Positions 9,877 to 47,284 of a DNA stretch of 48,484 bases are shown here, piece after piece (the stretch's first letter is position 1; each line of letters begins with the position of its first letter). The notes beneath the pieces were generated by a model that was not told the origin of the DNA, ran no database searches, and worked only from the letters and a program-made list of their open reading frames with translations. The stretch is taken from positions 1-48,484 of the IMG/VR virus record IMGVR_UViG_2737471860_000008, one strand, 5' to 3'. A program made the position numbers and the translations under genes. The DNA comes from a virus (lineage: Duplodnaviria > Heunggongvirae > Uroviricota > Caudoviricetes).

Positions 9877-10527
9877 TTATGGAAGGTTTGCTAGTTTTGC
9901 ATCGACAACTACGCCGATGATTTTGCAGTTTCCGTTGATCTCGATCATCGGATATTGTGGGTTAAGTGGTTTTAGAAACTTCCTGCCTGCATCAATAACT
10001 AACTTCTTGAAAGTTGCCTCGTTTTCTCCTTCGAGCTTTGCAACTACCAGTTTCCCGTTACGCGGCTCTACTTCAGGATCGACGAGTATTATCATTCCTT
10101 CAGGGATACTGAGACCGGCCGGAGCCGTCATTGAGTCTCCCTTCACGTCCAACCAAAACGAATCTTCTGAACAGTCTACGGTTGTATCGTACCAGTTATC
10201 TATTGCACGCTTATGATATGGTTCTACAGCTTCCATCCAGCATCCTGCGCTCACCCAGCTAATCAGAGGGTATGACCCTCTTGGATCATGCCTACTGTGA
10301 TAGGCAATGTTTGAAAGACTTTCCTCTCCTTTCATCAGATAGTCAGGGGAACACTTCAACGCATTAGCCAGGGCGAGAAGATTCTCTCCATTTGGCTCTG
10401 TCTCAGAGCGTTCCCACTGAGATATGGCAACATTAGACACGCCGACCATCTTTCCAAGTGCGGCCTGCCTGATCTTGAGTTCTTTTCTCCGAGCGCGAAT
10501 GCGCTCTCCCATCAATTGAGTTTTCAT
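9877..10527 (-). CDS. cI: CI repressor (P22 C2/434-type, HTH plus S24 LexA-like autopeptidase), 216 aa
   Basis: N-terminal HTH (QAALGKMVGVSNVAISQWERSE), C-terminal S24 domain with GDSM serine and conserved Lys; divergent from cro. Confidence 0.9.
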   Translation of the reverse strand: MKTQLMGERIRARRKELKIRQAALGKMVGVSNVAISQWERSETEPNGENLLALANALKCSPDYLMKGEESLSNIAYHSRHDPRGSYPLISWVSAGCWMEAVEPYHKRAIDNWYDTTVDCSEDSFWLDVKGDSMTAPAGLSIPEGMIILVDPEVEPRNGKLVVAKLEGENEATFKKLVIDAGRKFLKPLNPQYPMIEINGNCKIIGVVVDAKLANLP

Positions 10528-14842: not shown

Positions 14843-15239
14843 ACTAAGAAGCCACATCCATCAGCAGAACGCCATTCAAGCCATCCAGCAAATCCTTCCA
14901 GACCCAACCAAACCAATCGTAGTAACCATTCAGGAACGCAACCGCAGCATTCGGCAAAATGCACGCCTTCACGCGATGCTATCTGAAATAAGTAAGAAGG
15001 CTACATATCATGGAAAAGCAAGAAATATTGAGTTTTGGAAGGGGTTATTCGTTTCTGGTTGGCAGATTGCAACCAACCAGCACCCTGAGATTATATCAGG
15101 GTTAGAAGGTGAGCTAATAAACATCAGAGAGAGTACGGCGACTCTATCTGTAAAAAAAATATCCGAAATAATGGACTACATAGAAGCATATTGTGCCATG
15201 AACTCAATTCATCTTAGCGAATGGAGGAATTATGATTGA
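14823..15239 (+). CDS. ninB: NinB-like recombination protein, C-terminally altered by an HNH cassette insertion
   Basis: N-terminus MKKLTFELRSHIHQQNAIQAIQQILPDPTKPIVVTIQERNRS matches lambda NinB as I recall it; the native C-terminal codons (KARWGDRAA) are found at 15805-15834 fused to the HNH ORF. Confidence 0.7.
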   Translation: MKKLTFELRSHIHQQNAIQAIQQILPDPTKPIVVTIQERNRSIRQNARLHAMLSEISKKATYHGKARNIEFWKGLFVSGWQIATNQHPEIISGLEGELINIRESTATLSVKKISEIMDYIEAYCAMNSIHLSEWRNYD

Positions 15240-15834
15240 GGTTTGGGTAGATATCGAAGGGATTCCATTTTATCAGGTTAGCAATAAAGGAAATTTCAGG
15301 TCTATTACGAGGGAAGTTACAGTAACATCAACCAGACAGAGGCCATATAAGAAAATAATTAATGGCACTAGTGTAAAACCATTCAAGTGCAAGTCGACAG
15401 GATATCTTCAAATAAAGGTATACGGTAAGAAATACAGCGCCCACAGGATAGTTGCGAAAGCATTCTGTACAGGGTTTTGTGATGGCTTGGTAGTTAATCA
15501 CAAAAATGGGCGAAGAGATGACAATAGGGCTGATAACCTTGAATGGGTATCACATTCTGAAAACTCAAAACACGGATATAAACAAAATGGAAGAATACCT
15601 ATATCGCTAGGTAAATTTAGTGGTGACCATCCTGCCAGTAAAGCTGTTATTTCTACTGACATGAAAACTGGGGAGGAGGTTTATTATGAAGCAGCTATGG
15701 ATGCTGTCAGAGAAGGATTTGATAGTTCGTCAATTAGTCGTTGCTGTAATGGCGAAAGCTCATATCACAAAGGAAGATTCTGGCGATTTGCAAATGAAAA
15801 AATGAAAGCGCGATGGGGAGACCGGGCAGCATGA
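15232..15834 (+). CDS. HNH homing-type endonuclease, 200 aa, ending in the displaced ninB 3' codons
   Basis: HNH motif [24 protein letters not shown]; NUMOD-like N-terminus; AT-rich relative to flanks; own GGAGG SD. Confidence 0.8.
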
Positions 15835-16153: not shown

Positions 16154-16859
16154 TTGACCAAAATCGAAGTTACGAACAAGAAAGCGTCGAGCGAGCTTTA
16201 ACGTGCGCTAACTGCGGTCAGAAGCTGCATGTGCTGGAAGTTCACGTGTGTGAGCGTTGTATATATGAATGCTTAAATATGGTGGAACATAATGAGAAAT
16301 ATAAGCAACATAGACGAATTAAGAAATAAATTATCATATGATGATGTTTTAGGTGTACTTAGATGGAAAGTGTCTCCTTCTAATAATGTTAAGGTTGGCA
16401 GTGTTGCTGGTTACATTAGGAGTGATGGTTATAGGATGTTAACTATCGATGGTGTAATTACTTATGCTCACCACGTCATATGGATGATAAATAATGGTGA
16501 GATTCCATTAGGGTATAAAATTGATCATATAAATGGAGTAAGGTCAGATAATAGGCTATCTAATCTTCGATTGGTTACACACCAACAGAATGCACAGAAC
16601 CAAAAGAGAAAAATAACCAATTCGTCAGGAGTGACTGGAGTATATTTCAATAAAGAGAGATGTAAGTGGATTGCGAATATATGCGTAGATGGGCGCACCA
16701 AATATCTTGGAATATTTGCTAGCATCATTGACGCTATTGCAGAAAGGAAGAGGGCAGAAAAAGAACTGGGTTTTCATGAAAACCATGGCAGACCATAACT
16801 GCGCAGAACTGATGAGCGATCCGAATAGCTCGATGCACGAGGAAGAAGACGATGAATGA
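16150..16859 (+). pseudogene. ninF: ninF split by a 539-bp HNH endonuclease cassette (5' part 16150-16260, 3' part 16800-16859 in a different frame)
   Basis: 5' part encodes ...QESVERALTCANCGQKLHVLEVHVCERC and 3' part encodes CAELMSDPNSSMHEEEDDE, which together match lambda NinF as I recall it; 539 bp between them shifts the frame. Confidence 0.6.
16292..16798 (+). CDS. HNH endonuclease with AP2-like DNA-binding region, 168 aa
   Basis: HNH motif IDHINGVRSDNRLSNLRLVTHQQN; AT-rich; lies entirely within the ninF interruption. Confidence 0.8.
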   Translation: MRNISNIDELRNKLSYDDVLGVLRWKVSPSNNVKVGSVAGYIRSDGYRMLTIDGVITYAHHVIWMINNGEIPLGYKIDHINGVRSDNRLSNLRLVTHQQNAQNQKRKITNSSGVTGVYFNKERCKWIANICVDGRTKYLGIFASIIDAIAERKRAEKELGFHENHGRP

Positions 16860-17574
16860 GTTAATAAATGGCAATGCCATCAAAATGACAAGCATTGAAA
16901 TCGCTGAGTTGGTTGGTAAGCGTCATGACAATGTGAAACGTACCATCGAAACGCTGGCTAAAAATGGTGTTATCCGGCTTCCTCAAATTGAGGTTTCCGA
17001 AAGAATCAATAACTTAGGGTTCAATGTTCAGTACGAGCATTACGTCTTCGAAGGCGAACAAGGTAAGCGAGACAGTATTGTCGTTGTTGCCCAGTTGTCG
17101 CCGGAATTCACCGCTCGCCTTGTTGACCGTTGGCGAGAGCTTGAAGACGCTGCGGTTAATATCCCCAAAACTCTACCAGAAGCGTTGCGCCTTGCTGCTG
17201 ATTTTGCTGAGCAGAAAATGCAACTGGAAAACCAGCTCGCAATTGCCGCACCTAAAGTTGAGTTTGCCGATCGCGTTGGCGAGGCCAGCGGAATTTTGAT
17301 TGGAAACTATGCAAAGGTTGTTGGTATTGGTCCAAACAAACTGTTTGCATGGATGCGCGATCGCAAAATCCTTATTGCTTCAGGTTCCCGGCGCAATGTG
17401 CCAATGCAGGAATATATGGATCGCGGCTATTTCACCGTAAAAGAAACAGCGGTCAACACAAATCACGGAATACAGATATCGTTCACCACAAAAATCACCG
17501 GGCGTGGTCAACAGTGGCTGACCAGAAAGCTGCTCGATAACGGAATGCTGAAAGTAACAGGGGAGGCTGCTTAA
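16852..17574 (+). CDS. Rha/Ant-family phage regulatory protein (antirepressor-like), 240 aa
   Basis: N-terminal Rha-like region (MTSIEIAELVGKRHDNVKRTIE) and C-terminal ANT-like region. Confidence 0.65.
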   Translation: MNELINGNAIKMTSIEIAELVGKRHDNVKRTIETLAKNGVIRLPQIEVSERINNLGFNVQYEHYVFEGEQGKRDSIVVVAQLSPEFTARLVDRWRELEDAAVNIPKTLPEALRLAADFAEQKMQLENQLAIAAPKVEFADRVGEASGILIGNYAKVVGIGPNKLFAWMRDRKILIASGSRRNVPMQEYMDRGYFTVKETAVNTNHGIQISFTTKITGRGQQWLTRKLLDNGMLKVTGEAA

Positions 17575-18299: not shown

Positions 18300-18788
18300 A
18301 TGGGCATAAGAGAACTAAACCTCACCAAAGAACAGCACGATTGGCTGAATGGATGGCTTGAACTGTGGGGCGCATGGGTTTATTCAGGCCGCCTGGAAAA
18401 GCGCATGAGCAGCGTAATAGCGAAGTTCATGGAGAGCGTAGAGCCGGGAAGAGTTATGACAAGGCCAATGTGTAATGATGATGATGGAATGTTGATTTCT
18501 CAGGTCGTCGATTCCGTCATGTGCATTGACAAGAAAGCCTTTGGCATCCTCCTCAGCTACTACGCTCATGGCTCTTCCAAGCACGCCATTGCATCTTACT
18601 ATCATTGCGTCGCAAGACCTCGCAAGATGTTATGCCGTGGCGGCGGGCGCATTCAAAAACCATCGCTCGCAACCTGTCGACGGGAAGTTGACGAAATCCT
18701 TAATGCCTCGTTGTTTATGATTTACCCGGTTCTGGATAGTGCGTTTAAAAATCGGAAACGTGTAGAGAAAATTAAACATGTAGCATAG
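18300..18788 (+). CDS. Late-gene antiterminator Q-like protein, 162 aa (by position; family not verified)
   Basis: Last gene before tRNAs and the lysis cassette, Cys/His-containing; no firm motif recognised. Confidence 0.45.
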   Translation: MGIRELNLTKEQHDWLNGWLELWGAWVYSGRLEKRMSSVIAKFMESVEPGRVMTRPMCNDDDGMLISQVVDSVMCIDKKAFGILLSYYAHGSSKHAIASYYHCVARPRKMLCRGGGRIQKPSLATCRREVDEILNASLFMIYPVLDSAFKNRKRVEKIKHVA

Positions 18789-19205: not shown

Positions 19206-19529
19206 ATGAAGATGCCAGAAAAACATGACCTGTTAGCCGCCATTCTCGCGGCAAAGGAACAAGGCATCGGGGCAATCCTTGCGTTTGCAATGGCGTACCT
19301 TCGCGGCAGATATAATGGCGGTGCGTTTACAAAAACAGTAATCGACGCAACGATGTGCGCCATTATCGCCTGGTTCATTCGTGACCTTCTCGACTTCGCC
19401 GGACTAAGTAGCAATCTCGCTTATATAACGAGCGTGTTCATCGGCTACATCGGTACTGACTCGATTGGTTCGCTTATCAAACGCTTCGCTGCTAAAAAAG
19501 CCGGAATAGAAGATGGTGGAAATCAATAA
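19206..19529 (+). CDS. S: Holin (lambda S-type, class I), 107 aa
   Basis: Near-identical to lambda S as I recall it ([39 protein letters not shown]...) including the dual-start MKM. Confidence 0.9.
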
Positions 19530-19989
19530 TCAACGTAAGGCGTTCCTCGATATGCTGGCGTGGTCAGAGGGAACTGATAACGGACGTCAGAAAACCAGAA
19601 ATCATGGTTATGACGTCATTGTTGGCGGAGAGCTATTCACTGATTACTCCGATCACCCACGCAAACTTGTCACGCTAAACCCCAAACTCAAATCAACAGC
19701 CGCCGGACGCTACCAGCTTCTTTCCCGTTGGTGGGATGCCTACCGCAAGCAGCTTGGCCTGAAAGACTTCTCTCCGAAAAGCCAGGACGCTGTGGCACTG
19801 CAACAGATTAAAGAGCGTGGCGCTTTACCGATGATTGATCGCGGTGATATTCGTCAGGCTATCGACCGTTGCAGTAATATCTGGGCTTCACTGCCTGGCG
19901 CTGGCTATGGCCAGTTCGAGCATAAGGCTGACAGCCTGATTGCAAAATTCAAAGAAGTTGGCGGAACGGTCAGAGAGATTGAGGTATGA
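19513..19989 (+). CDS. R: Endolysin (lambda R-type lytic transglycosylase), 158 aa
   Basis: Matches lambda R as I recall it ([39 protein letters not shown]...). Confidence 0.9.
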
Positions 19990-20453
19990 GCAGAGTAACC
20001 GCGATTATCTCCGCTCTGGTTATCTGCATCATCGTCTGCCTGTCGTGGGCGGTAAATCATTACCGTGATAACGCCATCGCCTACAAAGAACAGCGTGATA
20101 AAAAAGTCAGTGAGCTGAAGCAGGCGACCGCCACCATTACTGACATGCAGCAGCGCCAGCGTTCTGCTGATGCACTCGATGCTAAATACACGAAGGAGTT
20201 AGCTGATGCGAAAGCTGAAAATGATGCTCTTCGGCGCAAGCTTGATAATGGTGGTCGGGTGTTCGTCAAAGGAAAATGCCCTGTGTCATCCTCAGCCGAA
20301 ACCTCCAGCGCCTCCGGCATGGGCAATGATGCCACCGTCGAACTCTCTGCAGTTGCTGGACGAAACGTTCTCGGTATCCGGTCCGGAATCATCAGCGACC
20401 AAACAGCCATGAGGGCGCTGCAGGAATACATCACCACGCAGTGCCTGAAGTAA
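19986..20453 (+). CDS. Rz: i-spanin Rz, 155 aa
   Basis: N-terminal TM and coiled-coil matching lambda Rz N-terminus; C-terminal half divergent. Confidence 0.85.
20206..20412 (+). CDS. Rz1: o-spanin Rz1 lipoprotein, embedded in the +1 frame of Rz, 68 aa
   Basis: Lipobox LIMVVGC, proline-rich [11 protein letters not shown]; entirely nested within Rz. Confidence 0.8.
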
Positions 20454-37893: not shown

Positions 37894-38222
37894 GAACCTA
37901 TGGCCGAAACTCTGAGGGGAAGTGGGTCCTGGTGGAAACCGACGAAAATGGGTTTAATGACTCGGTGTATTTGACCACTCTGATCCAGAATCTGAAACTG
38001 GCACCGCAGGAGTCGCCCTTTTATGCGAACAACGGAATACCGGCCGCCGGTTCAGTGATCCAGCAAATCCTGCCAACGTATTACGTAAACCGTATTCAAA
38101 AACAGTTCAGCCAGTATTTTTCCTCGCTGCAGATTGCACTGATCAGCGACGACCCGCCTGTTTATAACATCTCGGCAATCACAAACGCAGGTTCAAAAAT
38201 AATTACACAGGTGGCCGTATGA
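37890..38222 (+). CDS. Small baseplate protein (gpW-like by position), 110 aa
   Basis: Position. Confidence 0.4.
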   Translation: MRTYGRNSEGKWVLVETDENGFNDSVYLTTLIQNLKLAPQESPFYANNGIPAAGSVIQQILPTYYVNRIQKQFSQYFSSLQIALISDDPPVYNISAITNAGSKIITQVAV

Positions 38223-39637
38223 GCGATTTACCAGTCAGCTATACGTCAGCAGGACCGGTTCCTCTGACGCCGGAAGAGCTAAGAGCACAGCTCGTTTCCC
38301 AGGCCATTGCGCTATCTCCGGGGCTCACAACTGATTTGCCTGGCTCTCTGATTGAGGACGTGGCCAGTACCGATGTCGGCGCGCTCATCGTTTGTGATCA
38401 AGCAAGGGTTGACCTGATTAACTCAGTGGGGCCGCTAAAGGCTAACCTCGCCATGCTAGAGCTTCTCGCGCAGCAGGCTGGTATCCCCGGGCAAAAAACG
38501 GCTGGCACGACAACGGTTCCGATTCAGTTTTCCGGCCCGGCGGGATTTGTTATCCCACAGGGGTTTATTGTTTCTGATGGGACCTATACCTATTCAGTCA
38601 GTGATGCGACGATTATCTCATCGTCTGGAGTATCTGCCAGCGTATCATGCGAGGGAACGGAGACCGGGACCTGGGCGGTTCCGGTAAATACGGTTAACCA
38701 GATCATATCCAGTCTACCGTCTGACGTCACCATCACCTGCACCAACCCGATCGCCGGCACTCCGGGTGCTGACCCGGAAACGAACTATCAGTTTCGTGAT
38801 CGCGTATGGCAGGCGCAGATGGCCACCGTTCAGGGATATCCTGGATTTATCCGGCAATATCTCACCAGCCTTGATAACGTGCAGGCGCGCCTGGTTTCTG
38901 TCATTCAGGACGGGGATAAGTGGATAGTTATGTGTGCCGGCGGTGATATTTACGATATTGCTGGCGCGCTCTATAAGTCTGCAGGGGATATCAGTCGGCT
39001 GAAAGGGTGTTCACTGAACGTAACGGGGATCACGAATGCAAATCCTGGTGTCGTCAGCACAGACCTGACTCATGGTTACACTGACGGCCAGGTTATCCGG
39101 ATCACTGGCGTTACCGGGATGACGGGTATTAATGACGTTCCTCTGACCGTGACGGTACTGTCTCCTCACACGTTTTCCATCGGGATTGACACCACGTCAT
39201 CCGGGACCTGGGGAGGCGGCGGCGAGGTGACACCGAACGTCAGAAACAATACCGTGACGGTGAATGACTGGCCTGATAACTACGTGATCCCGTTCGTGAC
39301 GCCATTGCTGCAGCGGGTCACTGTGACGTATCAGTGGGGGACAGAAAGTGTTAACTACCTGACAGATGCCACGGTCGCCTCTCTGGTCTCGGCGCCTACG
39401 ATTCAGTATGTGAACGGCATATTCGCCGGGAAACCGCTGAACGTTAACAACCTGAAAGACGCATTCTTACAGGCGATTAACTCGACAATCGACATGGGGC
39501 TGATCAGTACTCTAAACGTCGTGGTCACCATCAATGGTGTGATAACGCCACCGGATGCCGGGACGAATATCATCAGCGGCGATAAGTTCAGTTATTTTTA
39601 TATCGCGTCGGATGGCGTGATCGTAACAGGGGCGTAG
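38219..39637 (+). CDS. Baseplate wedge protein (gpJ-like), 472 aa, with inserted HG.T.GQ...TF domain
   Basis: Size and position; overlapping start/stop with neighbours. Confidence 0.5.
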   Translation: MSDLPVSYTSAGPVPLTPEELRAQLVSQAIALSPGLTTDLPGSLIEDVASTDVGALIVCDQARVDLINSVGPLKANLAMLELLAQQAGIPGQKTAGTTTVPIQFSGPAGFVIPQGFIVSDGTYTYSVSDATIISSSGVSASVSCEGTETGTWAVPVNTVNQIISSLPSDVTITCTNPIAGTPGADPETNYQFRDRVWQAQMATVQGYPGFIRQYLTSLDNVQARLVSVIQDGDKWIVMCAGGDIYDIAGALYKSAGDISRLKGCSLNVTGITNANPGVVSTDLTHGYTDGQVIRITGVTGMTGINDVPLTVTVLSPHTFSIGIDTTSSGTWGGGGEVTPNVRNNTVTVNDWPDNYVIPFVTPLLQRVTVTYQWGTESVNYLTDATVASLVSAPTIQYVNGIFAGKPLNVNNLKDAFLQAINSTIDMGLISTLNVVVTINGVITPPDAGTNIISGDKFSYFYIASDGVIVTGA

Positions 39638-39638
39638 C

Positions 39639-40343
39639 ATGCTGGACGATATCATCCGGTCGTATATGTATACGCAATACAACGACGATGACAATCTGCG
39701 GGCGTTTTTTACTGCTTATAACTCGATGGCGCAGGGCATTTATGACTGGATGGTTAATGCCAACCTGCCGATTTTCATCGGTGACTACAACACCGGAGAC
39801 CAGCTCCGGTGGATTGCCCATGGCATCTATGGCGTTTTGCCGCCGGTGATTTCCAGCAGCGATCAGCAGGAGATAGGCCCATATAACACCTTCGAATTTA
39901 ACCAACTGGCATTCAATGAGTACCGGGTGATTGACCAGTCGAACCAGGTTGTTGTCTCCGATGACCTTTTTAAGCGGATCATGACCTGGAATTTTTATAA
40001 AGGTGACGGCTTCTATTTCTCTATCCCATGGATAAAACGGCGTATTCTGCGGTTCCTGTTGGGAGTGAATGGCACAGACATCCTCAACGACCAGCGATGG
40101 AGTATCTCGATCCAGTTTGTGGATGGCGGTATCGTGATTTCCATCTATAAGGGGCGCCGCAGGTTCACGCGGAGCGCTATCTACAACGCATCGGCCTATA
40201 ACTCCAGGAAGTACAACCAGAAGGACACGGCTTTTGTGATCACCGAGGATTTCGAGTTCGCCATTTTTTTCAAGCAGGCCATGGATAGCGGCCTGCTTCA
40301 CATGCCGTTCTATCAGTCCATTTCGGTGGAAATTATTGATTGA
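39639..40343 (+). CDS. Baseplate/tail-fibre-attachment protein (gpI-like), 234 aa
   Basis: Position between J-like protein and fibre genes. Confidence 0.45.
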   Translation: MLDDIIRSYMYTQYNDDDNLRAFFTAYNSMAQGIYDWMVNANLPIFIGDYNTGDQLRWIAHGIYGVLPPVISSSDQQEIGPYNTFEFNQLAFNEYRVIDQSNQVVVSDDLFKRIMTWNFYKGDGFYFSIPWIKRRILRFLLGVNGTDILNDQRWSISIQFVDGGIVISIYKGRRRFTRSAIYNASAYNSRKYNQKDTAFVITEDFEFAIFFKQAMDSGLLHMPFYQSISVEIID

Positions 40344-40386
40344 AGCACAATGACTGTGGTGTAGTATTTACCTCATCCACCACAGC

Positions 40387-41079
40387 ATGGTAAAGATTAA
40401 AATGAAAACTTCAATTATGCTTGCTTTTTTATCAGTTTCGTTGTGCGCAGGAAGTTCTTTTGCAGCTTCTTTTGATTGTAATAAATCAAAAAATTTTGCA
40501 GAAAAAACAATTTGTTCTGACAAGAAATTATCAGAAGATGATGAGGTTCTTGCTAAGGTTTATAATCTTGCAAAGAAAGTTGCGCATAATAAAAATGGGT
40601 TCGATAGGCTGACAAAAGATTTATGGGACTCAAGGGATTTGTGCACCGACTACAAATGCATTAATGATTGGTATGATACTGTATTTGTTGCGTATGATTC
40701 TGTTATAAAAACAAATGCAAGCGATGAGGTTTTGAATAATATTCAGAAAAAATATGATGAGTCAATAACGCAGAAGCCAGCAATAAGCAACGGAGCTAAA
40801 AACAAAAAAGAAGCTAAAGATTATAGTTTATACGATTCAAAAGACAGAGCCGCGCCAGTTGAACATAACGCAATATTATACAAAGACACTCCAGAGGCAT
40901 TCGAATTTATAGATACACTTGTTGGGTTTGTCAGACAAAGCTCTTACAAATGTGACTCTGTTAGCTCTTTCATACCCATGGTTTCATCTAATGGATTTAC
41001 GCTCGCATGTAATAAATTCAGCTACAAATATGAAATTAAAAACAACGGCGGAAATGTCTCTGTTTCTGTAGATAATTAA
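40387..41079 (+). CDS. AT-rich moron: secreted DUF1311 (LprI-like lysozyme-inhibitor fold) protein, 230 aa
   Basis: Signal peptide MKTSIMLAFLSVSLCAGSSFA; DUF1311-type motif FDCNKSKNFAEKTICSD..L...D..L...Y; AT-rich versus neighbours; own terminator. Confidence 0.6.
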   Translation: MVKIKMKTSIMLAFLSVSLCAGSSFAASFDCNKSKNFAEKTICSDKKLSEDDEVLAKVYNLAKKVAHNKNGFDRLTKDLWDSRDLCTDYKCINDWYDTVFVAYDSVIKTNASDEVLNNIQKKYDESITQKPAISNGAKNKKEAKDYSLYDSKDRAAPVEHNAILYKDTPEAFEFIDTLVGFVRQSSYKCDSVSSFIPMVSSNGFTLACNKFSYKYEIKNNGGNVSVSVDN

Positions 41080-41130
41080 CTCAAAGCCCACGCCAGTGGG
41101 ATTTCATAAATAACACATTGATAACATCAA

Positions 41131-41153
41131 ACCCGCTTCGGCGGGTTTTTTTA
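41131..41153 (+). terminator. Rho-independent terminator after the moron
   Basis: Hairpin CCCGC-TTCG-GCGGG followed by TTTTTTT. Confidence 0.75.
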
Positions 41154-41174
41154 TGCCTATATCCCGGAGGAGAC

Positions 41175-44087
41175 ATGGCACTAACCCTTTTGGCTACAAA
41201 CAACGCAGAAAGCACGCTGGCTTCTGCTATCAGCGCTACCGACACGTCGCTGATCGTTAGCGCTGGAACTGGTGCCGAGTTCCCTGATGCTGTGGCAGGC
41301 GAAAGCTACTTTAAGCTTACGATCACCGATGCCGCCACCGGCTCTCAGGTTGAGATCGTGAACGTGACAGCCAAGGCTGGTGACATCTTCACGATTGAAC
41401 GTGCGCAGGAAGGAACGCTGGCTCATGCGTGGGCGGCCAACGATATGGTTGCCAACATGATGACGGCGGATACGCTGAACATTATCGCTCAATATGCCCA
41501 GCAGGCAGCTGCATCAGCAGCACAGGCTGAAGAGTATGCAAATAACGCTTCTGACTATGCACAGAATAAGTTCACGTTCTATAAAACCTCAAGCGATCCA
41601 GATGGCACCATTGCAGGTCTGGCAGCGACTACTGACGGCCAGTCTTTCTGGGTAGCCCAGGGTCCGGATGCGCTTTCTGCTGCATGGCAGTATCAAAACA
41701 AAGCAGGCGTGGCCGTATTGCAGGCAAAGCAACCAGGCACAGCGGCTATAACAGGGACAATCCGCGAATTTCCGACGTTGGCTGCGGCGCAGGCTGATGC
41801 AGATGCCGGCAACATTCCTGTCGGGTCAACTGCGTATTACCGCAGCGCTGACGACGCAACTCTTGCGATTGAGGTTGTTAACACCGCAGGAACGCTGCAG
41901 CCTACCGGACGAAAAATGCCATCCGCAATGCCAATGGGTTACCAGTCTGCTACAGCTGTGAGTAGCGGTGCGGCTAATACCATTGCTATCACTATCCCCG
42001 GATTATTAGTGGATGGCAGTTTGATTTATTTCCTGTCTCCTATTTTGAATACGGCGGCTGTTAGCGTTACCGTGACAGATGCCAGGGGGAACTCGGTTAC
42101 TCGGGCAATACAGAAACAAAATAATGCAGCTTTAGTTGGGAATGAGTTGCTTCTCAATCAGCCCGCACTGATGGAATTCCGCACTGGGACTGCTAACAAT
42201 TTTGTCCTTGTGGCATCCGGCCCGGTAGCCGCTGAACTTGCGTCAAGAATTTCCACGCTTGAATTAAATAGCGTAGCGTTATTGTCTGGCGTTGCTAATT
42301 CTGGAGATGCCTATTCCGGCACCGCATCTACAATCCCTGGACTTGTTGCATCTGATCGCGTCTTTCTTTTTACGCCAAGCGCCACCAATACAACCCGTAC
42401 ACCAACTCTTTCCGTTAATGGTGGAACGGCAAGGCAGATTAAGCAAAATAACGGGACCAGCGTCGCTGCTGGAGATTTTGTAGCGGGATACACGTATTTA
42501 ATCAAATTTAATTTTTCATCAGCAGATTTTCGGATGCTGACCTACCCGGCTGACAGAAGTCGCGTACTTAATGGTTATTCAAAGGCAACTGTTACCAGCG
42601 ATGCTACCAGTCCTAACTCGGTAGCATTAACAATTCCCGGGTTACTTGGCGATGGAACTCAGCTTACTTTTGAGCCGGTTGTTGCAAATACCGGTGCTAT
42701 GACTTTGGTCATCACCGATATGTACGGTAACACAGTCACGCGTAACTTATTCAAAGGGGCTAATACTGCGCTAACTGGTGGAGAGCTGCGGGCGGCAATG
42801 CCAGCCACTGTGCAATACCGTGGCTCTCCGCAGAATAACTTTAAGCTGTTGTATGCCGGTGATCCAACCACGGATATACAGTCCCTCTCAAAAGACGTTA
42901 CGACCCTCAAGGGGGCGCTGACAGACCCGTATGCAGCACTGGCCGATAAACTTGTGGGCACCGGAGTGTCAACAGATCAGTCACCGTTCGGTACCATCAC
43001 CTGGTCCGCGGGAGTTAAGACCGTCACAAAGCGCCAGATAATTTGTACGTCTATCGGGTCTTCTGTGGGCGTTGGGGCGGGCTCTACTGGCGGCGGCGTT
43101 GCCGGTGCTCCTTATGCTCCGAACACGCTGTTTGTCAATGCCTTAAAAGAAGAGCTTAAGCAGTATGGTCAGTTCGATATTATTGATGATAACCAGTGCA
43201 TACCGACCCAGGCATTCCAGCAGTTCGCTGCCCAGCTCGCGAATTCGCCTTATTCAACCTCCGACTTTGTTTTGATCGTGGGGGGGATGAATGATGCACC
43301 AGTTGGTAACTACAATATGGGGCGCACATATCCGGGTCAGCAAACGACGCTTGAGGCTCTTGTCGACCTGTGCCTGGCACGTGGCGCTATTCCCATCATC
43401 TGTACGACTCCGCACCATAACGTAGAAATGCCTCAAACTTACCCGACAATACCAGGAGGGCAGCCTTTATTGTGGCCTTATCGCACATATAACGTAGGAC
43501 CGACAACAACTTATGCATTTGACTCTTCTTCAAAGACGATAACGCAAGGGGCGTTCGCAAACCCACTGTATGGGGGTAATATTCTCAAGCCAGGACACAC
43601 ACTGCATGTAGCAAGTGGCGCGAATGCTGGAGATTATACAATTGCGTCTATTTCATCTGACCGAACAGTAATAACAGTTGTAGAACCGATACCATCTACT
43701 ACTTCCTATGCCACCACCATCACGCAAACCAACCTGAACAGCATTATTGAGGACATACTGGAGCCGCCCCCATCCACATCTTTTGTCACAAAGGACTGGA
43801 GCGGAAGCGGCGTGAAAGTTTTGGGCGATGTGAGATTCGAGTCAGTAAACATGATGCAACGTACAGTGGCTCGCCAAAAAAATGCATTTTTGGCCGACTG
43901 TGAAAAGTCGTTCTTTAAATACGGCGTGGAGGTGGGCGGGTACTCGTCGGTATATAACGTCCCGGTTGGGAACTATAACCACATGAACGATAACGGGTAC
44001 ACAGTCACATTCGACTACACACTGAAAGTTGCGGCAAGAAAAATAGCCAATCTTATTTTTGGCGATAAATATTACTCTGCAGCATAA
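41175..44087 (+). CDS. Tail fibre/tailspike, ~970 aa, with SGNH/GDSL-like esterase domain (start moved to MALTLLATNN)
   Basis: GGAGGAG SD before ATG 41175; conserved fibre N-terminal domain; central region with GSS...GGMNDA...PHH blocks resembling SGNH hydrolases. Confidence 0.7.
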   Translation: MALTLLATNNAESTLASAISATDTSLIVSAGTGAEFPDAVAGESYFKLTITDAATGSQVEIVNVTAKAGDIFTIERAQEGTLAHAWAANDMVANMMTADTLNIIAQYAQQAAASAAQAEEYANNASDYAQNKFTFYKTSSDPDGTIAGLAATTDGQSFWVAQGPDALSAAWQYQNKAGVAVLQAKQPGTAAITGTIREFPTLAAAQADADAGNIPVGSTAYYRSADDATLAIEVVNTAGTLQPTGRKMPSAMPMGYQSATAVSSGAANTIAITIPGLLVDGSLIYFLSPILNTAAVSVTVTDARGNSVTRAIQKQNNAALVGNELLLNQPALMEFRTGTANNFVLVASGPVAAELASRISTLELNSVALLSGVANSGDAYSGTASTIPGLVASDRVFLFTPSATNTTRTPTLSVNGGTARQIKQNNGTSVAAGDFVAGYTYLIKFNFSSADFRMLTYPADRSRVLNGYSKATVTSDATSPNSVALTIPGLLGDGTQLTFEPVVANTGAMTLVITDMYGNTVTRNLFKGANTALTGGELRAAMPATVQYRGSPQNNFKLLYAGDPTTDIQSLSKDVTTLKGALTDPYAALADKLVGTGVSTDQSPFGTITWSAGVKTVTKRQIICTSIGSSVGVGAGSTGGGVAGAPYAPNTLFVNALKEELKQYGQFDIIDDNQCIPTQAFQQFAAQLANSPYSTSDFVLIVGGMNDAPVGNYNMGRTYPGQQTTLEALVDLCLARGAIPIICTTPHHNVEMPQTYPTIPGGQPLLWPYRTYNVGPTTTYAFDSSSKTITQGAFANPLYGGNILKPGHTLHVASGANAGDYTIASISSDRTVITVVEPIPSTTSYATTITQTNLNSIIEDILEPPPSTSFVTKDWSGSGVKVLGDVRFESVNMMQRTVARQKNAFLADCEKSFFKYGVEVGGYSSVYNVPVGNYNHMNDNGYTVTFDYTLKVAARKIANLIFGDKYYSAA

Positions 44088-44475: not shown

Positions 44476-44715
44476 ATGCTTCGACAGTCAGACATCGCCG
44501 CGGCTTTCCGCGAGTCGGTTTTGCGCAGCTCTAAGGGGTTCCAGTACCTTCACACCCGCGACTTTGTTAGCGCGCTGCGCCAGCATGGCATCCACTTTTC
44601 CGAGGTGGAAGCTAACGCCTGGATAGCGCGCGAGCAAACGTATTTCGTCGATAAGACGCCTGACCATAGCGAAAACAGGCTGTGGATGATGGCCAACATG
44701 GGGAGGGTTTTGTAA
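44476..44715 (+). CDS. Hypothetical small protein, first gene of LexA-box operon, ~80 aa
   Basis: GGAGGG SD 6 nt before ATG 44476; stop overlaps next start (TAATG). Confidence 0.55.
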   Translation: MLRQSDIAAAFRESVLRSSKGFQYLHTRDFVSALRQHGIHFSEVEANAWIAREQTYFVDKTPDHSENRLWMMANMGRVL

Positions 44716-45032
44716 TGGGCTTTCCATCACCGGCAACGGACTATACCGAACAGCGGCTGACCGTTAACTCGATCTGTAATGTCGGGCCAAATACTCGCCT
44801 TTACGAAAGGGATGGTGGTTATGTTGTGCTGGATATCTCCCTGAAGCCAAAGCAGGGAAGCCAGCTGCTTATCCATCACGGTGGCGGGACGGAACTTGCC
44901 ACGCTGAGAGGAAAGTCACTGATAACCGATGATGGCGAAGCGATCGAGGGGGATGCTCTGGACGATGTCACTGTCATTGGTGTCGTGACATTTACTATCT
45001 GCGATGTTCGTTCTGATAATTCTATTATTTAA
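44715..45032 (+). CDS. UmuD-prime-like protein (S24-like fold, catalytic Ser apparently absent), ~105 aa
   Basis: Starts MGFPSPATDYTEQR, matching the post-cleavage N-terminus of UmuD (GFPSPAADYVEQR); C-terminal VIGVV block conserved; no GDSM serine motif. Confidence 0.6.
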   Translation: MGFPSPATDYTEQRLTVNSICNVGPNTRLYERDGGYVVLDISLKPKQGSQLLIHHGGGTELATLRGKSLITDDGEAIEGDALDDVTVIGVVTFTICDVRSDNSII

Positions 45033-45043
45033 CTGGGGTATAT

Positions 45044-46075
45044 ATGGCGCTGAAGCTATTAGCCAATAATAACGCAAAGAGTGTGCTCGCTGCGGGTATT
45101 AGCGCGTCCGCTACCGTTATTACCGTGGGTACTGGAGCGGGGTCTTTATTCCCTTCCCCTGTATCTGGGCAGAGCTATTTCAAATTAACGATAACCGACG
45201 CGGCCACGAAAACAATTTCCGAAATTATGCACGTCACGTCTGTATCTGGTGACGTGATGACAGTAATTCGTGGTCAGGAAGGAACTACGGCACGCGTATG
45301 GTCAACGAATGACATTGTCGCGAATTTAATGACCGCCGGGTCATTATTATCTTTCCTGCAGATCAGTAATAACCTGTCAGAAATTAAAGATGCTGGTGAT
45401 GATGCGGTAAATGAAGCCCGTTATAACCTCGGAATATCTGATTCCTCTGGTTTTGTCGGTCGTTCACTTGGCGCTCCAAAAGTTTTCTATGCAAACGGAA
45501 CCTATACGCGATCTCCTCTGGCCCGTTATGCAAAAGTAACGTTGACAGGTGCCGGTGGCGGCGGTGGCGGCTGCCAGGCCTACAACAATACAGAAACCTT
45601 CTCCGGTGCTGGCGGCGGCGCGGGCGCGACCATTATCGTATGGGTTGACCTGTCTGCTGCCAGTTCTTATGCGATTACTGTCGGCAAGGGTGGTAAGGGC
45701 GGAGTTGGCGCAGTAAGTGGTGCAGATGGTGGGGCCACCTCGTTTGCCAGCCTGTTCTCAGCTCCTGGCGGGAAAGGCGGCGTGAAGTCAGGCGTGTCCA
45801 ATACCGCCGGCGGCGCCGGAGGTACGGCGGCGACCGGAGATATCAGGATCAACGGTGGTACCGGCTCAGATGGACAGACAGGCTCAAGCCTTCTGACGGG
45901 CAACGGCGGGGCGTCGTATTTTGGCGGCGGTGGCCGGGCGGGTTCTCAGGCCGGTATTGCTGGCGCAGCTCCCGGATCCGGTGGTGGTGGCGCGTATGAC
46001 CTTGGGTTTACCGGTGCGGCATTTACCGGTGGTGATGGTGCTACTGGCATGGCGATCGTGGAAGAATTCGCGTAA
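45044..46075 (+). CDS. Second tail-fibre protein with Gly-rich C-terminal domain, 343 aa
   Basis: N-terminal ~105 aa paralogous to the N-terminus of the 41175 fibre (…YFKLTITDAAT…QEGT…); C-terminal GGGGxG-rich repeats. Confidence 0.65.
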   Translation: MALKLLANNNAKSVLAAGISASATVITVGTGAGSLFPSPVSGQSYFKLTITDAATKTISEIMHVTSVSGDVMTVIRGQEGTTARVWSTNDIVANLMTAGSLLSFLQISNNLSEIKDAGDDAVNEARYNLGISDSSGFVGRSLGAPKVFYANGTYTRSPLARYAKVTLTGAGGGGGGCQAYNNTETFSGAGGGAGATIIVWVDLSAASSYAITVGKGGKGGVGAVSGADGGATSFASLFSAPGGKGGVKSGVSNTAGGAGGTAATGDIRINGGTGSDGQTGSSLLTGNGGASYFGGGGRAGSQAGIAGAAPGSGGGGAYDLGFTGAAFTGGDGATGMAIVEEFA

Positions 46076-46079
46076 TGGC

Positions 46080-47240
46080 TTACACTCCTGCACGACCATC
46101 GATGTAATCAGCCCACCACTGCATCATTTCTCTGCGCTTATCGAGATACTGAGCATGGTTGTAAATTCCGCGCACAGATCCGCCGTTGGCATGTGCAAGT
46201 TGCACTTCAATAGCATCAGCAGGCCATTCGTGCTCGTTCATAATCGTGCTGAATTCATGCCTGAATCCGTGACCGCTTTCCAGACCCTCATAGCCGATTT
46301 GTTTGATCACAAGCAATACCGCGTTCTCGCAGATTGGCTTCTTCTTATCGTTGCGTCCGGCAAAAACAAACTCTGATACTGGTTTAGTGATGGAGCTTAG
46401 CGTAGTGAGAAGTTCAACCACCTGGTCCGACATCGGGACCACATGAATCTTGCGTCCCTTCATCACGCTGGCGTCGATGGTGATAATCCTGTTTTCAAAA
46501 TCGACGTTCTTCCATAGCATGGAACGAAGCTCTTTCGTTCTTAGGGCTGTGTAGCGTAAAACTTTGGTCGCAATGAGCGATACGATACTTCCTGAAAATG
46601 TTGCCAGTGCTTTGTTGAATGCCGGGATCTGGTCTGCAGGAAGAAACGGGAAGTTCTTCTTGCGGTATCCTTTCATGGCGTCAGCAAGGTCAGGTGCCGG
46701 GTTATATTTAGCCCTGCCGGTGACAATAGCGTAACGGAAAACCTCGCCGCATCTTCTGCGGGCTTTGTTGGCTCGCTCCATTGCACCGCGATCTTCAAAT
46801 CTGCGGATTACTTCCAGTAGTTGCATCGGCTCAATATCCTGAATTTCAAGGCCGCCGATGATAGGTAAAATGTCGTCATCAAACATTTTTGCAAGTTCAT
46901 TTGCATAGCCTACTGACCAGACTTGCTTCTTGTGCTCGTACCATTCCTTGTAAATCGCACTAAATGAATTGTTGTTAGACGAAGCCTTTTTCGCCTTTAC
47001 CGGATCGATGCCAACCGAGATGTCTTTCCTCGAAGTCCATGCCTTATCCCTTGCCTCCTGCAAAGTCATTAGCGGATATTTTCCTACGGTTAGGACTTTC
47101 TCCTTACCGTCAATCTTGTAGCGAAGCTGCCATACCTTTTTCCCGGATACAGGGACATAAAGGTACAGTCCATTACCATCGAGAAGGCGGTATGGTTTTT
47201 CTTTCGGCTTTGCTGCTTCAATCTGCTTAACGGTGAGCAT
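46080..47240 (-). CDS. intS: Tyrosine integrase (IntS/P4-type), ~386 aa (start at MLTVKQ; alternative GTG at 47276)
   Basis: C-terminal catalytic region with R...H..R...Y pattern (HGFRHEF...RGIYNHAQY); adjacent to tRNA; matches my recollection of K-12 IntS. Confidence 0.85.
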   Translation of the reverse strand: MLTVKQIEAAKPKEKPYRLLDGNGLYLYVPVSGKKVWQLRYKIDGKEKVLTVGKYPLMTLQEARDKAWTSRKDISVGIDPVKAKKASSNNNSFSAIYKEWYEHKKQVWSVGYANELAKMFDDDILPIIGGLEIQDIEPMQLLEVIRRFEDRGAMERANKARRRCGEVFRYAIVTGRAKYNPAPDLADAMKGYRKKNFPFLPADQIPAFNKALATFSGSIVSLIATKVLRYTALRTKELRSMLWKNVDFENRIITIDASVMKGRKIHVVPMSDQVVELLTTLSSITKPVSEFVFAGRNDKKKPICENAVLLVIKQIGYEGLESGHGFRHEFSTIMNEHEWPADAIEVQLAHANGGSVRGIYNHAQYLDKRREMMQWWADYIDGRAGV

Positions 47241-47284
47241 GGGTAAAAATCCGGTGGGTAAAATTATTTTATCCACTTTTTACC
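47241..47284. promoter_or_regulatory. Cluster of GGGTAAAA/TTTTACCC repeats upstream of int (putative arm-type sites)
   Basis: GGGTAAAA at 47241-47248 and 47256-47263, TTTTACCC at 47277-47284; same 8-mer twice near attR. Confidence 0.4.

Follow-up and report, generated by a model that had tools for sequence, protein, structure and literature searches.

What does an AT-rich gene for a predicted secreted protein do among the tail genes of a temperate phage, and how did it get there? This question is raised by a cassette in the IMG/VR virus record IMGVR_UViG_2737471860_000008, of which all 48,484 bp (hereafter the window) were analysed; they represent a complete or near-complete temperate phage, and the cassette lies between a baseplate-module gene and the tail-fibre gene. 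A first-pass annotation had read it as a moron whose secreted DUF1311 product could shield the lysogen envelope as a lysozyme inhibitor. Our results suggest that the cassette is horizontally acquired accessory DNA (a moron) in a tail-module cargo hotspot, that it may be expressed in the lysogen, and that its product may act on the cell wall machinery in another way. This explanation is strong on its structural and evolutionary side; taken jointly (moron, regulation, product and function), it seems moderately probable.

An AT-rich cassette in a cargo hotspot

The window and the phages RothC and RothD are 96% identical up to position 40339 and again from 41130. Homology to RothC stops and restarts at exactly these positions, which mark the exchange boundaries of a 790-bp cassette (40340..41129, + strand) made up of a promoter-like element, one gene and its 3′ untranslated region. 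The open reading frame at 40387-41079 is the 693-bp stretch with the lowest guanine + cytosine (GC) content in all 48,484 bp (33.5% vs 50.2% overall), and only 0.008% of the stretches compared have a GC content as low. Its flanks have ∼51% GC, and GC at third codon positions is 28% in the cassette frame against 60–67% in the two upstream baseplate genes. The same deviation was found in all seven loci measured (gene 33–38%, flanks 43–55%), so the AT-rich, compositionally distinct character first ascribed to the cassette is confirmed. The GC troughs ranked second and third in the window are HNH homing-endonuclease genes of the early-right region (15232-15834 and 16292-16798; PHROG E = 1e-39 and 3e-70).

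We compared the slot between the baseplate and tail-fibre genes among related phages. In the Pantoea phage PdC23 it is empty: the baseplate stop codon ends 2 nt before the tail-fibre ATG (L010 3711-3714), and there is no cargo, spacer or terminator at the junction. In RothC and RothD it is occupied by another AT-rich gene on the reverse strand, which encodes a 133-amino-acid (aa) protein with its own signal peptide (L002 4756-5157, − strand), while in the Yersinia phages 29.18 and 30.14 it holds a gene for a 210-aa lipoprotein (lipobox LSGC, MKIVSYVLALTFFLSGC...; L008 3764-4396, + strand). Neither of these two cargo proteins has any match in Pfam or PADLOC. Yersinia phage 210.17 probably carries this lipoprotein too, to judge from a record length and match coordinates identical to those of 29.18. 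In contrast to these unrelated cargos, the Yersinia phages 21.09 and 06.16-1 carry in the slot a homolog of the window gene (49% identical).

Members of the family are also found elsewhere. Serratia prophages have a homolog in a different slot, 3′ of the tail-fibre assembly gene, and in other prophages (L011, L012, L013, L004 and L096) the cassette or a C-module relative adjoins a P22 immI-type Arc/Mnt/antirepressor block in the tail module. The Ant gene of the window, unlike that of the prophages with an Arc/antirepressor block beside the cassette, lies in the early region. Gene orientation is that of the late operon in all family loci.

Because the slot of relatives is either empty (PdC23) or filled with unrelated envelope-protein genes, the cassette is a genuine moron in a cargo hotspot. 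Morons are by published definition extra DNA relative to related phages, with deviant GC and their own promoter and terminator (PMC3594210). The moron reading of the first-pass annotation is thus well supported by the empty and other-cargo slots, the different slot in Serratia prophages, the deviant GC and the terminator before the fibre ribosome-binding site. The cassette is in this respect an ordinary, textbook moron with a product already labelled by NCBI, and its recognition as such therefore changes little. The baseplate/tail-fibre junction itself is useful to know as a hotspot in gut-associated temperate phages of Klebsiella, E. coli and Yersinia: unrelated envelope-protein genes, at least three of them, have occupied it, so it is a promising place to search for lysogenic-conversion functions.

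Promoter-like element, inverted repeat and terminator

Two hexamers upstream of the gene may serve as a promoter. TTGAAG (40340..40345, + strand) resembles a −35 element and overlaps the TGA stop codon of the upstream gene (40341-40343), and TAGTAT (40362-40367), part of GTGTAGTAT (40359..40367, + strand), resembles a −10 element. Alignment of the 16 distinct upstream regions that occur in 27 loci reveals that positions G40359, T40360 and A40363 of the GTGTA motif are invariant (16/16), that at least 90% of the regions share G40361, T40362 and T40367, and that the first T, the A and the final T of the TAnnnT pattern are each kept in at least 15 of the 16. TGTAnnnT can be read by eye in every region, although the fit of the Yersinia locus L003 needs an alignment shift of one base. 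In most lineages TTGAAG, TTGAGG or TTTAAG stands 16 nt upstream of TAnnnT, and in Serratia the whole promoter-like element accompanies the gene into its other slot. RothC encodes the same C-terminal residues of the upstream gene with other codons (ATCGACTAA), and the −35-like hexamer therefore arrived with the cargo. Sequence conservation of this kind makes it plausible that TTGAAG-N16-TAGTAT is a candidate weak sigma-70 promoter.

The −10-like hexamer is enclosed by an inverted repeat (40354..40385, + strand) whose arms, CTGTGGTG (40354-40361) and CACCACAG (40378-40385), are perfect 8-bp complements. An upstream inverted repeat had been reported at 40353-40379; the repeat is real, but those limits end 6 nt short. 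It is a candidate regulatory element at most, and on the window sequence alone the fold is within chance (z = −1.5; 15 of 200 shuffles as good). Eight distinct upstream sequences of the Klebsiella type have identical arms but differ in the loop and in the 9 nt that precede the left arm. Hairpins around or overlapping TGTAnnnT occur in most lineages; outside the Klebsiella type (L004 5940-5980; L007, L011 and L012) they stand in other registers and have other arm sequences (z from −0.6 to −3.4). As the registers differ among lineages, we reject a single conserved RNA helix at this place. An operator of the phage repressor is likewise unlikely because the half-site is absent from the phage immunity region.

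Downstream of the gene, an intrinsic terminator is confirmed at 41129..41152 on the + strand (41131-41153 in the first-pass annotation). It reads AAACCCGC-TTCG-GCGGGTTT followed by a T-run: the stem (41129-41136 / 41141-41148) has 8 bp, five of them G–C, the loop is TTCG and seven T extend to 41152. The region folds better than expected (z = −3.2); Rfam returned sub-threshold terminator look-alikes only, and nothing like this terminator was found in the 20 kb of upstream late genes. This terminator lies in the conserved right junction, where RothC retains it though the cargo there points the other way, and a similar hairpin stands behind every forward-oriented cargo of the tail-fibre slot, just before the fibre ribosome-binding site. 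In the window this site (GGAGGAG, 41166-41172) begins 13 nt after the T-run and precedes the fibre ATG at 41175. A promoter has no space between the terminator and the ribosome-binding site, and fibre transcription must therefore, we infer, read through the terminator. Lambdoid Q-modified polymerase is able to read through terminators.

The cassette resembles morons of the HK97 and lambda tail operons, in which a single gene stands between a promoter-like element and a terminator and the late operon is read through by antitermination (PMC3594210). HK97 gene 15 and the lambda genes lom and bor also share with it the status of extra DNA, the deviant GC and an envelope-targeted product (PMC3594210). 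Unlike in those morons, the promoter of the cassette is a conserved but sub-threshold candidate and the terminator belongs to the slot junction; the product is also predicted to be soluble and periplasmic, unlike their inner- or outer-membrane proteins.

A predicted secreted protein of two modules

The coding sequence (40402..41079, + strand; 225 aa + stop) starts at the ATG at 40402, as in RefSeq; an alternative in-frame start at 40387 would give 230 aa. In other lineages a Shine–Dalgarno-like AGG or GGA precedes the MK start. The protein matches phrog_33858 over its full length (1e-137). The exact 225-aa sequence occurs on 386 public contigs, where the NCBI Prokaryotic Genome Annotation Pipeline (PGAP) names it 'lysozyme inhibitor LprI family protein' (e.g. 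WP_024188859.1), as well as in 8 of 5,426 complete E. coli genomes, all of which have it in one and the same slot of a prophage. The family forms 23 clusters at 90% identity, all enterobacterial. Two pattern-based scans of genome contigs did not find it despite its presence in NCBI genomes, which is a limit of the method and not an absence. The phrog_33858 and RefSeq entries (e.g. WP_024188859.1) represent the same family as the cassette protein and are annotation labels only; a description of its function, module structure or moron context was not found in the literature.

The signal peptide first proposed from the letters is supported by a rule-based reading (hydropathy, the −3/−1 rule and the family alignment). 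The predicted Sec signal peptide (40402..40464, + strand; MKTSIMLAFLSVSLCAGSSFA, cut before A) has a K-rich n-region and a hydrophobic core IMLAFLSVSLCAG, followed by SFA|AS, with a hydropathy peak at residues 4–17 of the 225-aa form. Among 21 homologs this segment varies (14–90% identity), whereas the block A-SFDC directly after it is invariant, and the conserved cleavage site SFA|AS resembles a signal peptidase I site. A canonical lipobox is absent (VSLC-AG is non-canonical and its Cys is not conserved among homologs), and the protein has no transmembrane segment beyond the signal peptide.

Alignment of 21 family sequences (residue numbers of the 230-aa form) divides the mature protein into three parts: (i) an N-module (residues 27–108; 40465..40710, + strand), which appears to be a divergent LprI/DUF1311-like helical bundle; (ii) a hypervariable linker rich in K, N and E (residues 109–144; 40711..40818, + strand), with 8–58% identity in the family; and (iii) a C-module (residues 145–230; 40819..41076, + strand), an unnamed beta-alpha-beta4 domain with invariant C189 and C208. 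The N-module cysteines C31, C43, C86 and C91 are invariant in all 21 sequences. In the AlphaFold2 model the N-module is helical, with a predicted local distance difference test (pLDDT) score of 81–86, while pLDDT is below 50 at residues 123–148 in and around the linker.

The two modules evolve separately. Identity across the family is 70–98% for the C-module vs 43–79% for the N-module, and module shuffling is evident in P0005-P0008 (N near 49%, C near 97%), in P0020, P0022, P0024 and P0029, which keep the N-module with an unrelated C-module, and in one E. coli prophage that matches the C-half only (96% DNA identity). The alternative C-module of the latter four proteins (e.g. L005 6001-6630) is ∼90 aa long, has two Cys (YEC...GCK) and no Pfam match.

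The claim of a DUF1311 motif holds as remote homology and fails as a profile match. The Pfam model PF07007 (LprI/DUF1311) has no match to the cassette protein even at E <= 10, so that the Pfam gathering threshold of 22 bits is not reached; it matches 2 of the 21 family members, at best with E = 0.13. By contrast, hhalign aligns the family N-module with PF07007-positive domains at a probability of 99.1% (E = 7.5e-19; 68 columns, four Cys aligned). An exhaustive profile search retrieved 8,935 cluster representatives, mostly via the N-module, and PF07007 is carried by 30 of the best 148 profile hits. In short single-domain hits the PF07007 match (28–31 bits, cutoff 22) covers the same residues as the family profile, and the bridging proteins P0023, P0120, P0149 and P0153 pass PF07007 with the very residues covered by the family profile. 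The sequence relationships provide a solid basis for assigning the N-module to the LprI/DUF1311 superfamily as a divergent member, which may have the helical-bundle fold of the solved DUF1311 structure 3gi7.

The Pfam/NCBIfam scan gave no LprI hit, and several other candidates for the identity of the protein are rejected: DUF3990 (E 0.019 in that scan) is weak; A1S_1983 'putative colistin resistance' is sub-threshold (24.5 bits vs a cutoff of 150), and it stands for no more than a putative exported protein with mutations in evolved strains (PMC5088200); and a splicing-factor match in the PDB sequence search with the whole-family profile covers the low-complexity linker only.

Secreted proteins of the DUF1311 type are common among phage cargo, for at least 79 viral contigs encode relatives of the N-module. 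A near-identical phage contig encodes a second secreted DUF1311 protein elsewhere (L082 3010-3600, on the same IMG/VR contig as L015); it is 30% identical to the N-module, passes PF07007 at 26.8 bits and is not in the window.

Proposed mechanism and its competitors

From these features we propose the following sequence of events. In the lysogen, the putative weak sigma-70 promoter of the cassette (TTGAAG-N16-TAGTAT) would drive the gene, and transcription would end at the terminator. During lytic growth, Q-modified polymerase from the late promoter ∼21 kb upstream would transcribe through the cassette, past its terminator and on into the tail-fibre gene. The product would be exported by Sec, cleaved by signal peptidase, released into the periplasm and stabilised by up to three disulfides, as an LprI/DUF1311-type helical module with four Cys joined by a flexible linker to a small alpha + beta C-module. 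There it might bind and antagonise or modulate a periplasm-acting enzyme, most plausibly a peptidoglycan hydrolase such as an incoming type VI secretion effector, the tail lysin of a superinfecting phage or a host autolysin. Any benefit to the lysogen would be independent of the receptor specificity of the phage itself.

The role of a periplasmic binder or antagonist of a cell-wall-acting enzyme is the most likely function by analogy, at low confidence. The analogy is with two groups of DUF1311 proteins. Salmonella ScwA (SL1344_0490) is, like the cassette protein, enterobacterial, of low GC and apparently horizontally acquired, and has a signal peptide and a four-Cys DUF1311 module without MliC (PMC7933661). 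A periplasmic protein with two DsbA-dependent disulfides, it governs how much MltD, Slt, AmiC and other peptidoglycan hydrolases the cell contains (PMC7933661). ScwA differs in that its DUF1311 module is C-terminal (residues 185–271) and passes Pfam, whereas that of the cassette protein is N-terminal, below the cutoff and followed by a different C-module; ScwA is also chromosomal and not described as phage cargo (PMC7933661). The second group comprises DUF1311 proteins implicated as type VI secretion immunity proteins (PMC12981562, PMC12135965). Etsi4, a DUF1311 immunity protein of enterohaemorrhagic E. coli, rescues cells from the periplasm-active effector Etse4 (PMC12981562), and it and others of its kind are periplasmic and neutralise a periplasm-acting cell-wall effector (PMC12981562, PMC12135965). 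Unlike Etsi4-type immunity genes, the cassette gene has no adjacent effector gene: a cognate type VI effector was found beside it in none of the 13 loci examined, and the genes next to it there are of the baseplate, tail-fibre, Arc or antirepressor types. DUF1311 modules fused to the lysozyme-inhibitor domains Ivy and MliC add to the functional analogy.

Several points weigh against the proposed mechanism. Regarding regulation, a consensus promoter scan of the + strand of the region gave nothing over threshold, TTGAAG-N16-TAGTAT has 8 of 12 consensus positions and is sub-threshold, and the gap from the upstream stop codon to the start codon of the gene is no longer than 58 nt; expression could thus come mainly, or even exclusively, from the late transcript. 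Since the terminator lies in the conserved junction outside the exchangeable segment, an 'own terminator' is true of the slot only. DNA of 33% GC may also be silenced by H-NS in the lysogen. Regarding function, a search of the PADLOC-DB v2 defence models with the cassette protein gave no hits at E <= 0.1, and Foldseek with the full model did not find a solved relative in the PDB. Relatives of the N-module are fused to many unrelated domains, and the N-module, on which the functional analogy rests, may be a generic scaffold. Expression in the lysogen, export and enzyme binding are all predicted.

The first of these points could also be explained if the cassette were a late-expressed accessory gene with a role in lytic growth (e.g. 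tempering lysis or protecting progeny) and the terminator acted as an attenuator only. The lack of a consensus-grade promoter, the short intergenic gap and an orientation that follows the late operon in all family loci are consistent with this explanation, as is a terminator that is retained in the conserved junction of RothC, whose opposite-strand cargo cannot use it. On the other hand, the conserved TTnAAG-N16-TAnnnT element moves with the gene to another slot, the composition is strongly foreign, the cassette is dispensable and exchangeable among relatives, and C-module relatives occur on the strand opposite the late genes. Moreover, PdC23, the sole cargo-free relative examined, is reported to be one of two non-temperate members of the proposed family Felixviridae, which is otherwise reported as temperate (preprint 10.1101/2024.12.02.626457). 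We consider a purely late role rather unlikely.

A different emphasis is that the C-module, and not the DUF1311 part, is the active portion. Its structure model is confident; it has no Pfam family and no solved relative, and the folds it weakly matches are those of inhibitors, e.g. cystatin and latexin. The module recurs with other N-parts: the gene for P0085 runs on the opposite strand and separates the terminase genes from the holin-lysozyme-Rz cassette, that for P0110 lies between a Baseplate_J gene and an Arc/antirepressor block, and P0057 combines a clear PF07007 domain and Sel1 repeats with the C-module, while the divergent carriers P0155 and P0108 adjoin small XRE-type regulators. These proteins are prophage morons too, and the C-module is an uncharacterised but recurrent prophage cargo domain. 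It is conceivable, with a fairly low probability, that this module is a disulfide-bonded, cystatin-like roll that represents a new family of phage-borne periplasmic enzyme inhibitors. Such a domain could provide portable 'orphan immunity' against cell-wall-degrading type VI effectors or the tail lysins of incoming phages, and the faster-evolving DUF1311 module and linker would then be an adaptor. If true, this would be a mechanism of lysogenic conversion or exclusion that acts at the peptidoglycan step and not at the receptor or the inner membrane, and a periplasmic enzyme inhibitor of this kind would be a new type of phage-conferred envelope protection.

The first-pass annotation favoured a periplasmic LprI-like lysozyme inhibitor that shields lysogen peptidoglycan from host lysozyme or endolysins. 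The NCBI name, the homology of the N-module to PF07007, the gut association of the phage group and the inhibitor-like fold matches of the C-module all agree with it, as does the recurrent fusion of DUF1311 to lysozyme-inhibitor domains, i.e. Ivy among our profile hits and MliC in Mycobacterium tuberculosis LprI (PMC7933661). Yet MliC (PF09864), Ivy (PF08816) and PliG domains are absent from the cassette protein and from all 21 family members. M. tuberculosis LprI shares with the cassette protein a signal peptide, a DUF1311-type module and a second small domain, but it is a lipoprotein and its second domain is MliC, neither of which holds for the cassette protein; its inhibitory activity is credited to MliC and is not established for the DUF1311 part (PMC7933661). 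Experimental support for PF07007 as a lysozyme inhibitor is lacking, deletion of the DUF1311-only ScwA leaves lysozyme sensitivity unchanged, and bona fide lysozyme inhibitors are described as lipoproteins (PMC7933661), while the cassette protein is predicted to be soluble. The RefSeq label thus has no defining feature behind it and is unfit for inferring a phenotype. We therefore do not retain lysozyme inhibition as the protective function: an inhibitor of the MliC, Ivy or PliG kind is unlikely, and we attach a low probability to the shielding role as a whole.

The last competitor is superinfection exclusion by receptor masking or entry blocking, of the T5 Llp, phi80 Cor or P22 SieA type, by a protein that travels with the receptor-binding gene. 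The gene adjoins the tail fibre in most loci, or else a P22 immI-like Arc/antirepressor block, the position at which P22 carries sieA. The product is envelope-targeted, and in its moron architecture the gene resembles HK97 gp15, an exclusion gene (PMC3594210). A receptor blocker is nevertheless rejected, with a probability as low as that of the shielding role, because cargo type is independent of tail-fibre type (the fibres of Yersinia phages 21.09 and 29.18 are 98.7% identical with unrelated cargos, while the window and Chronis have a common cargo and fibres alike over the N-terminal 250 aa only), and the product has neither a lipobox nor a transmembrane segment beyond the signal peptide, nor any PADLOC model match.

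Host phage and neighbouring genes

The cassette is carried by a myovirus of the Chronis/RothC (Felixviridae) group that is temperate and lambda-regulated. Among cultured phages, Klebsiella phage vB_Kpn_Chronis is the closest to it (97.5% nucleotide identity over the region); Chronis, RothC and RothD have been assigned to the proposed Felixviridae, a group of gut-associated temperate phages (preprint 10.1101/2024.12.02.626457). The window encodes a CI-like repressor (9877-10527, minus strand), the anti-repressor Ant in the early region (16852-17574), a Q-like antiterminator (18300-18788) with a holin-endolysin-Rz cassette directly 3′ of it (19206-20453), a long rightward block of head, tail and baseplate genes, and an integrase (46080-47276, minus strand).

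The upstream flank of the cassette is a baseplate-module gene for a 234-aa protein (39639..40343, + strand), 3′ of the Baseplate_J gene. It had been called gpI-like, which agrees with its position after Baseplate_J but not with its matches: the protein hits phrog_8212 (4e-91; function unknown) and nothing in the Pfam scan. It is 100% identical across Chronis, RothC and RothD, and the PdC23 ortholog is annotated as DUF2612. The Baseplate_J protein (38219-39637) has a further match at residues 275–338, to the ubiquitin-activating E1 FCCH domain (PF16190; 52.9 bits), and the PGAP naming of its orthologs follows this domain.

The downstream flank is the tail-fibre gene (41175..44087, + strand), whose 970-aa product matches PHROG tail-fibre families and has only its first 250 aa in common with the Chronis fibre. 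Residues 627–755 form a GDSL/SGNH hydrolase-like region (Pfam 28.8 bits, just under the cutoff of 32.9), and the same-slot tail-fibre gene of an E. coli prophage (L100) carries the PGAP name 'SGNH/GDSL hydrolase family protein'. The window protein is thus probably a fibre of the esterase type that modifies the receptor. The interval from the main fibre gene to the integrase gene contains a UmuD-like gene (44682-45032) and a second gene of the tail-fibre or fibre-assembly kind (45044-46075), the 3′ end of which reaches a GC content of up to 63%.

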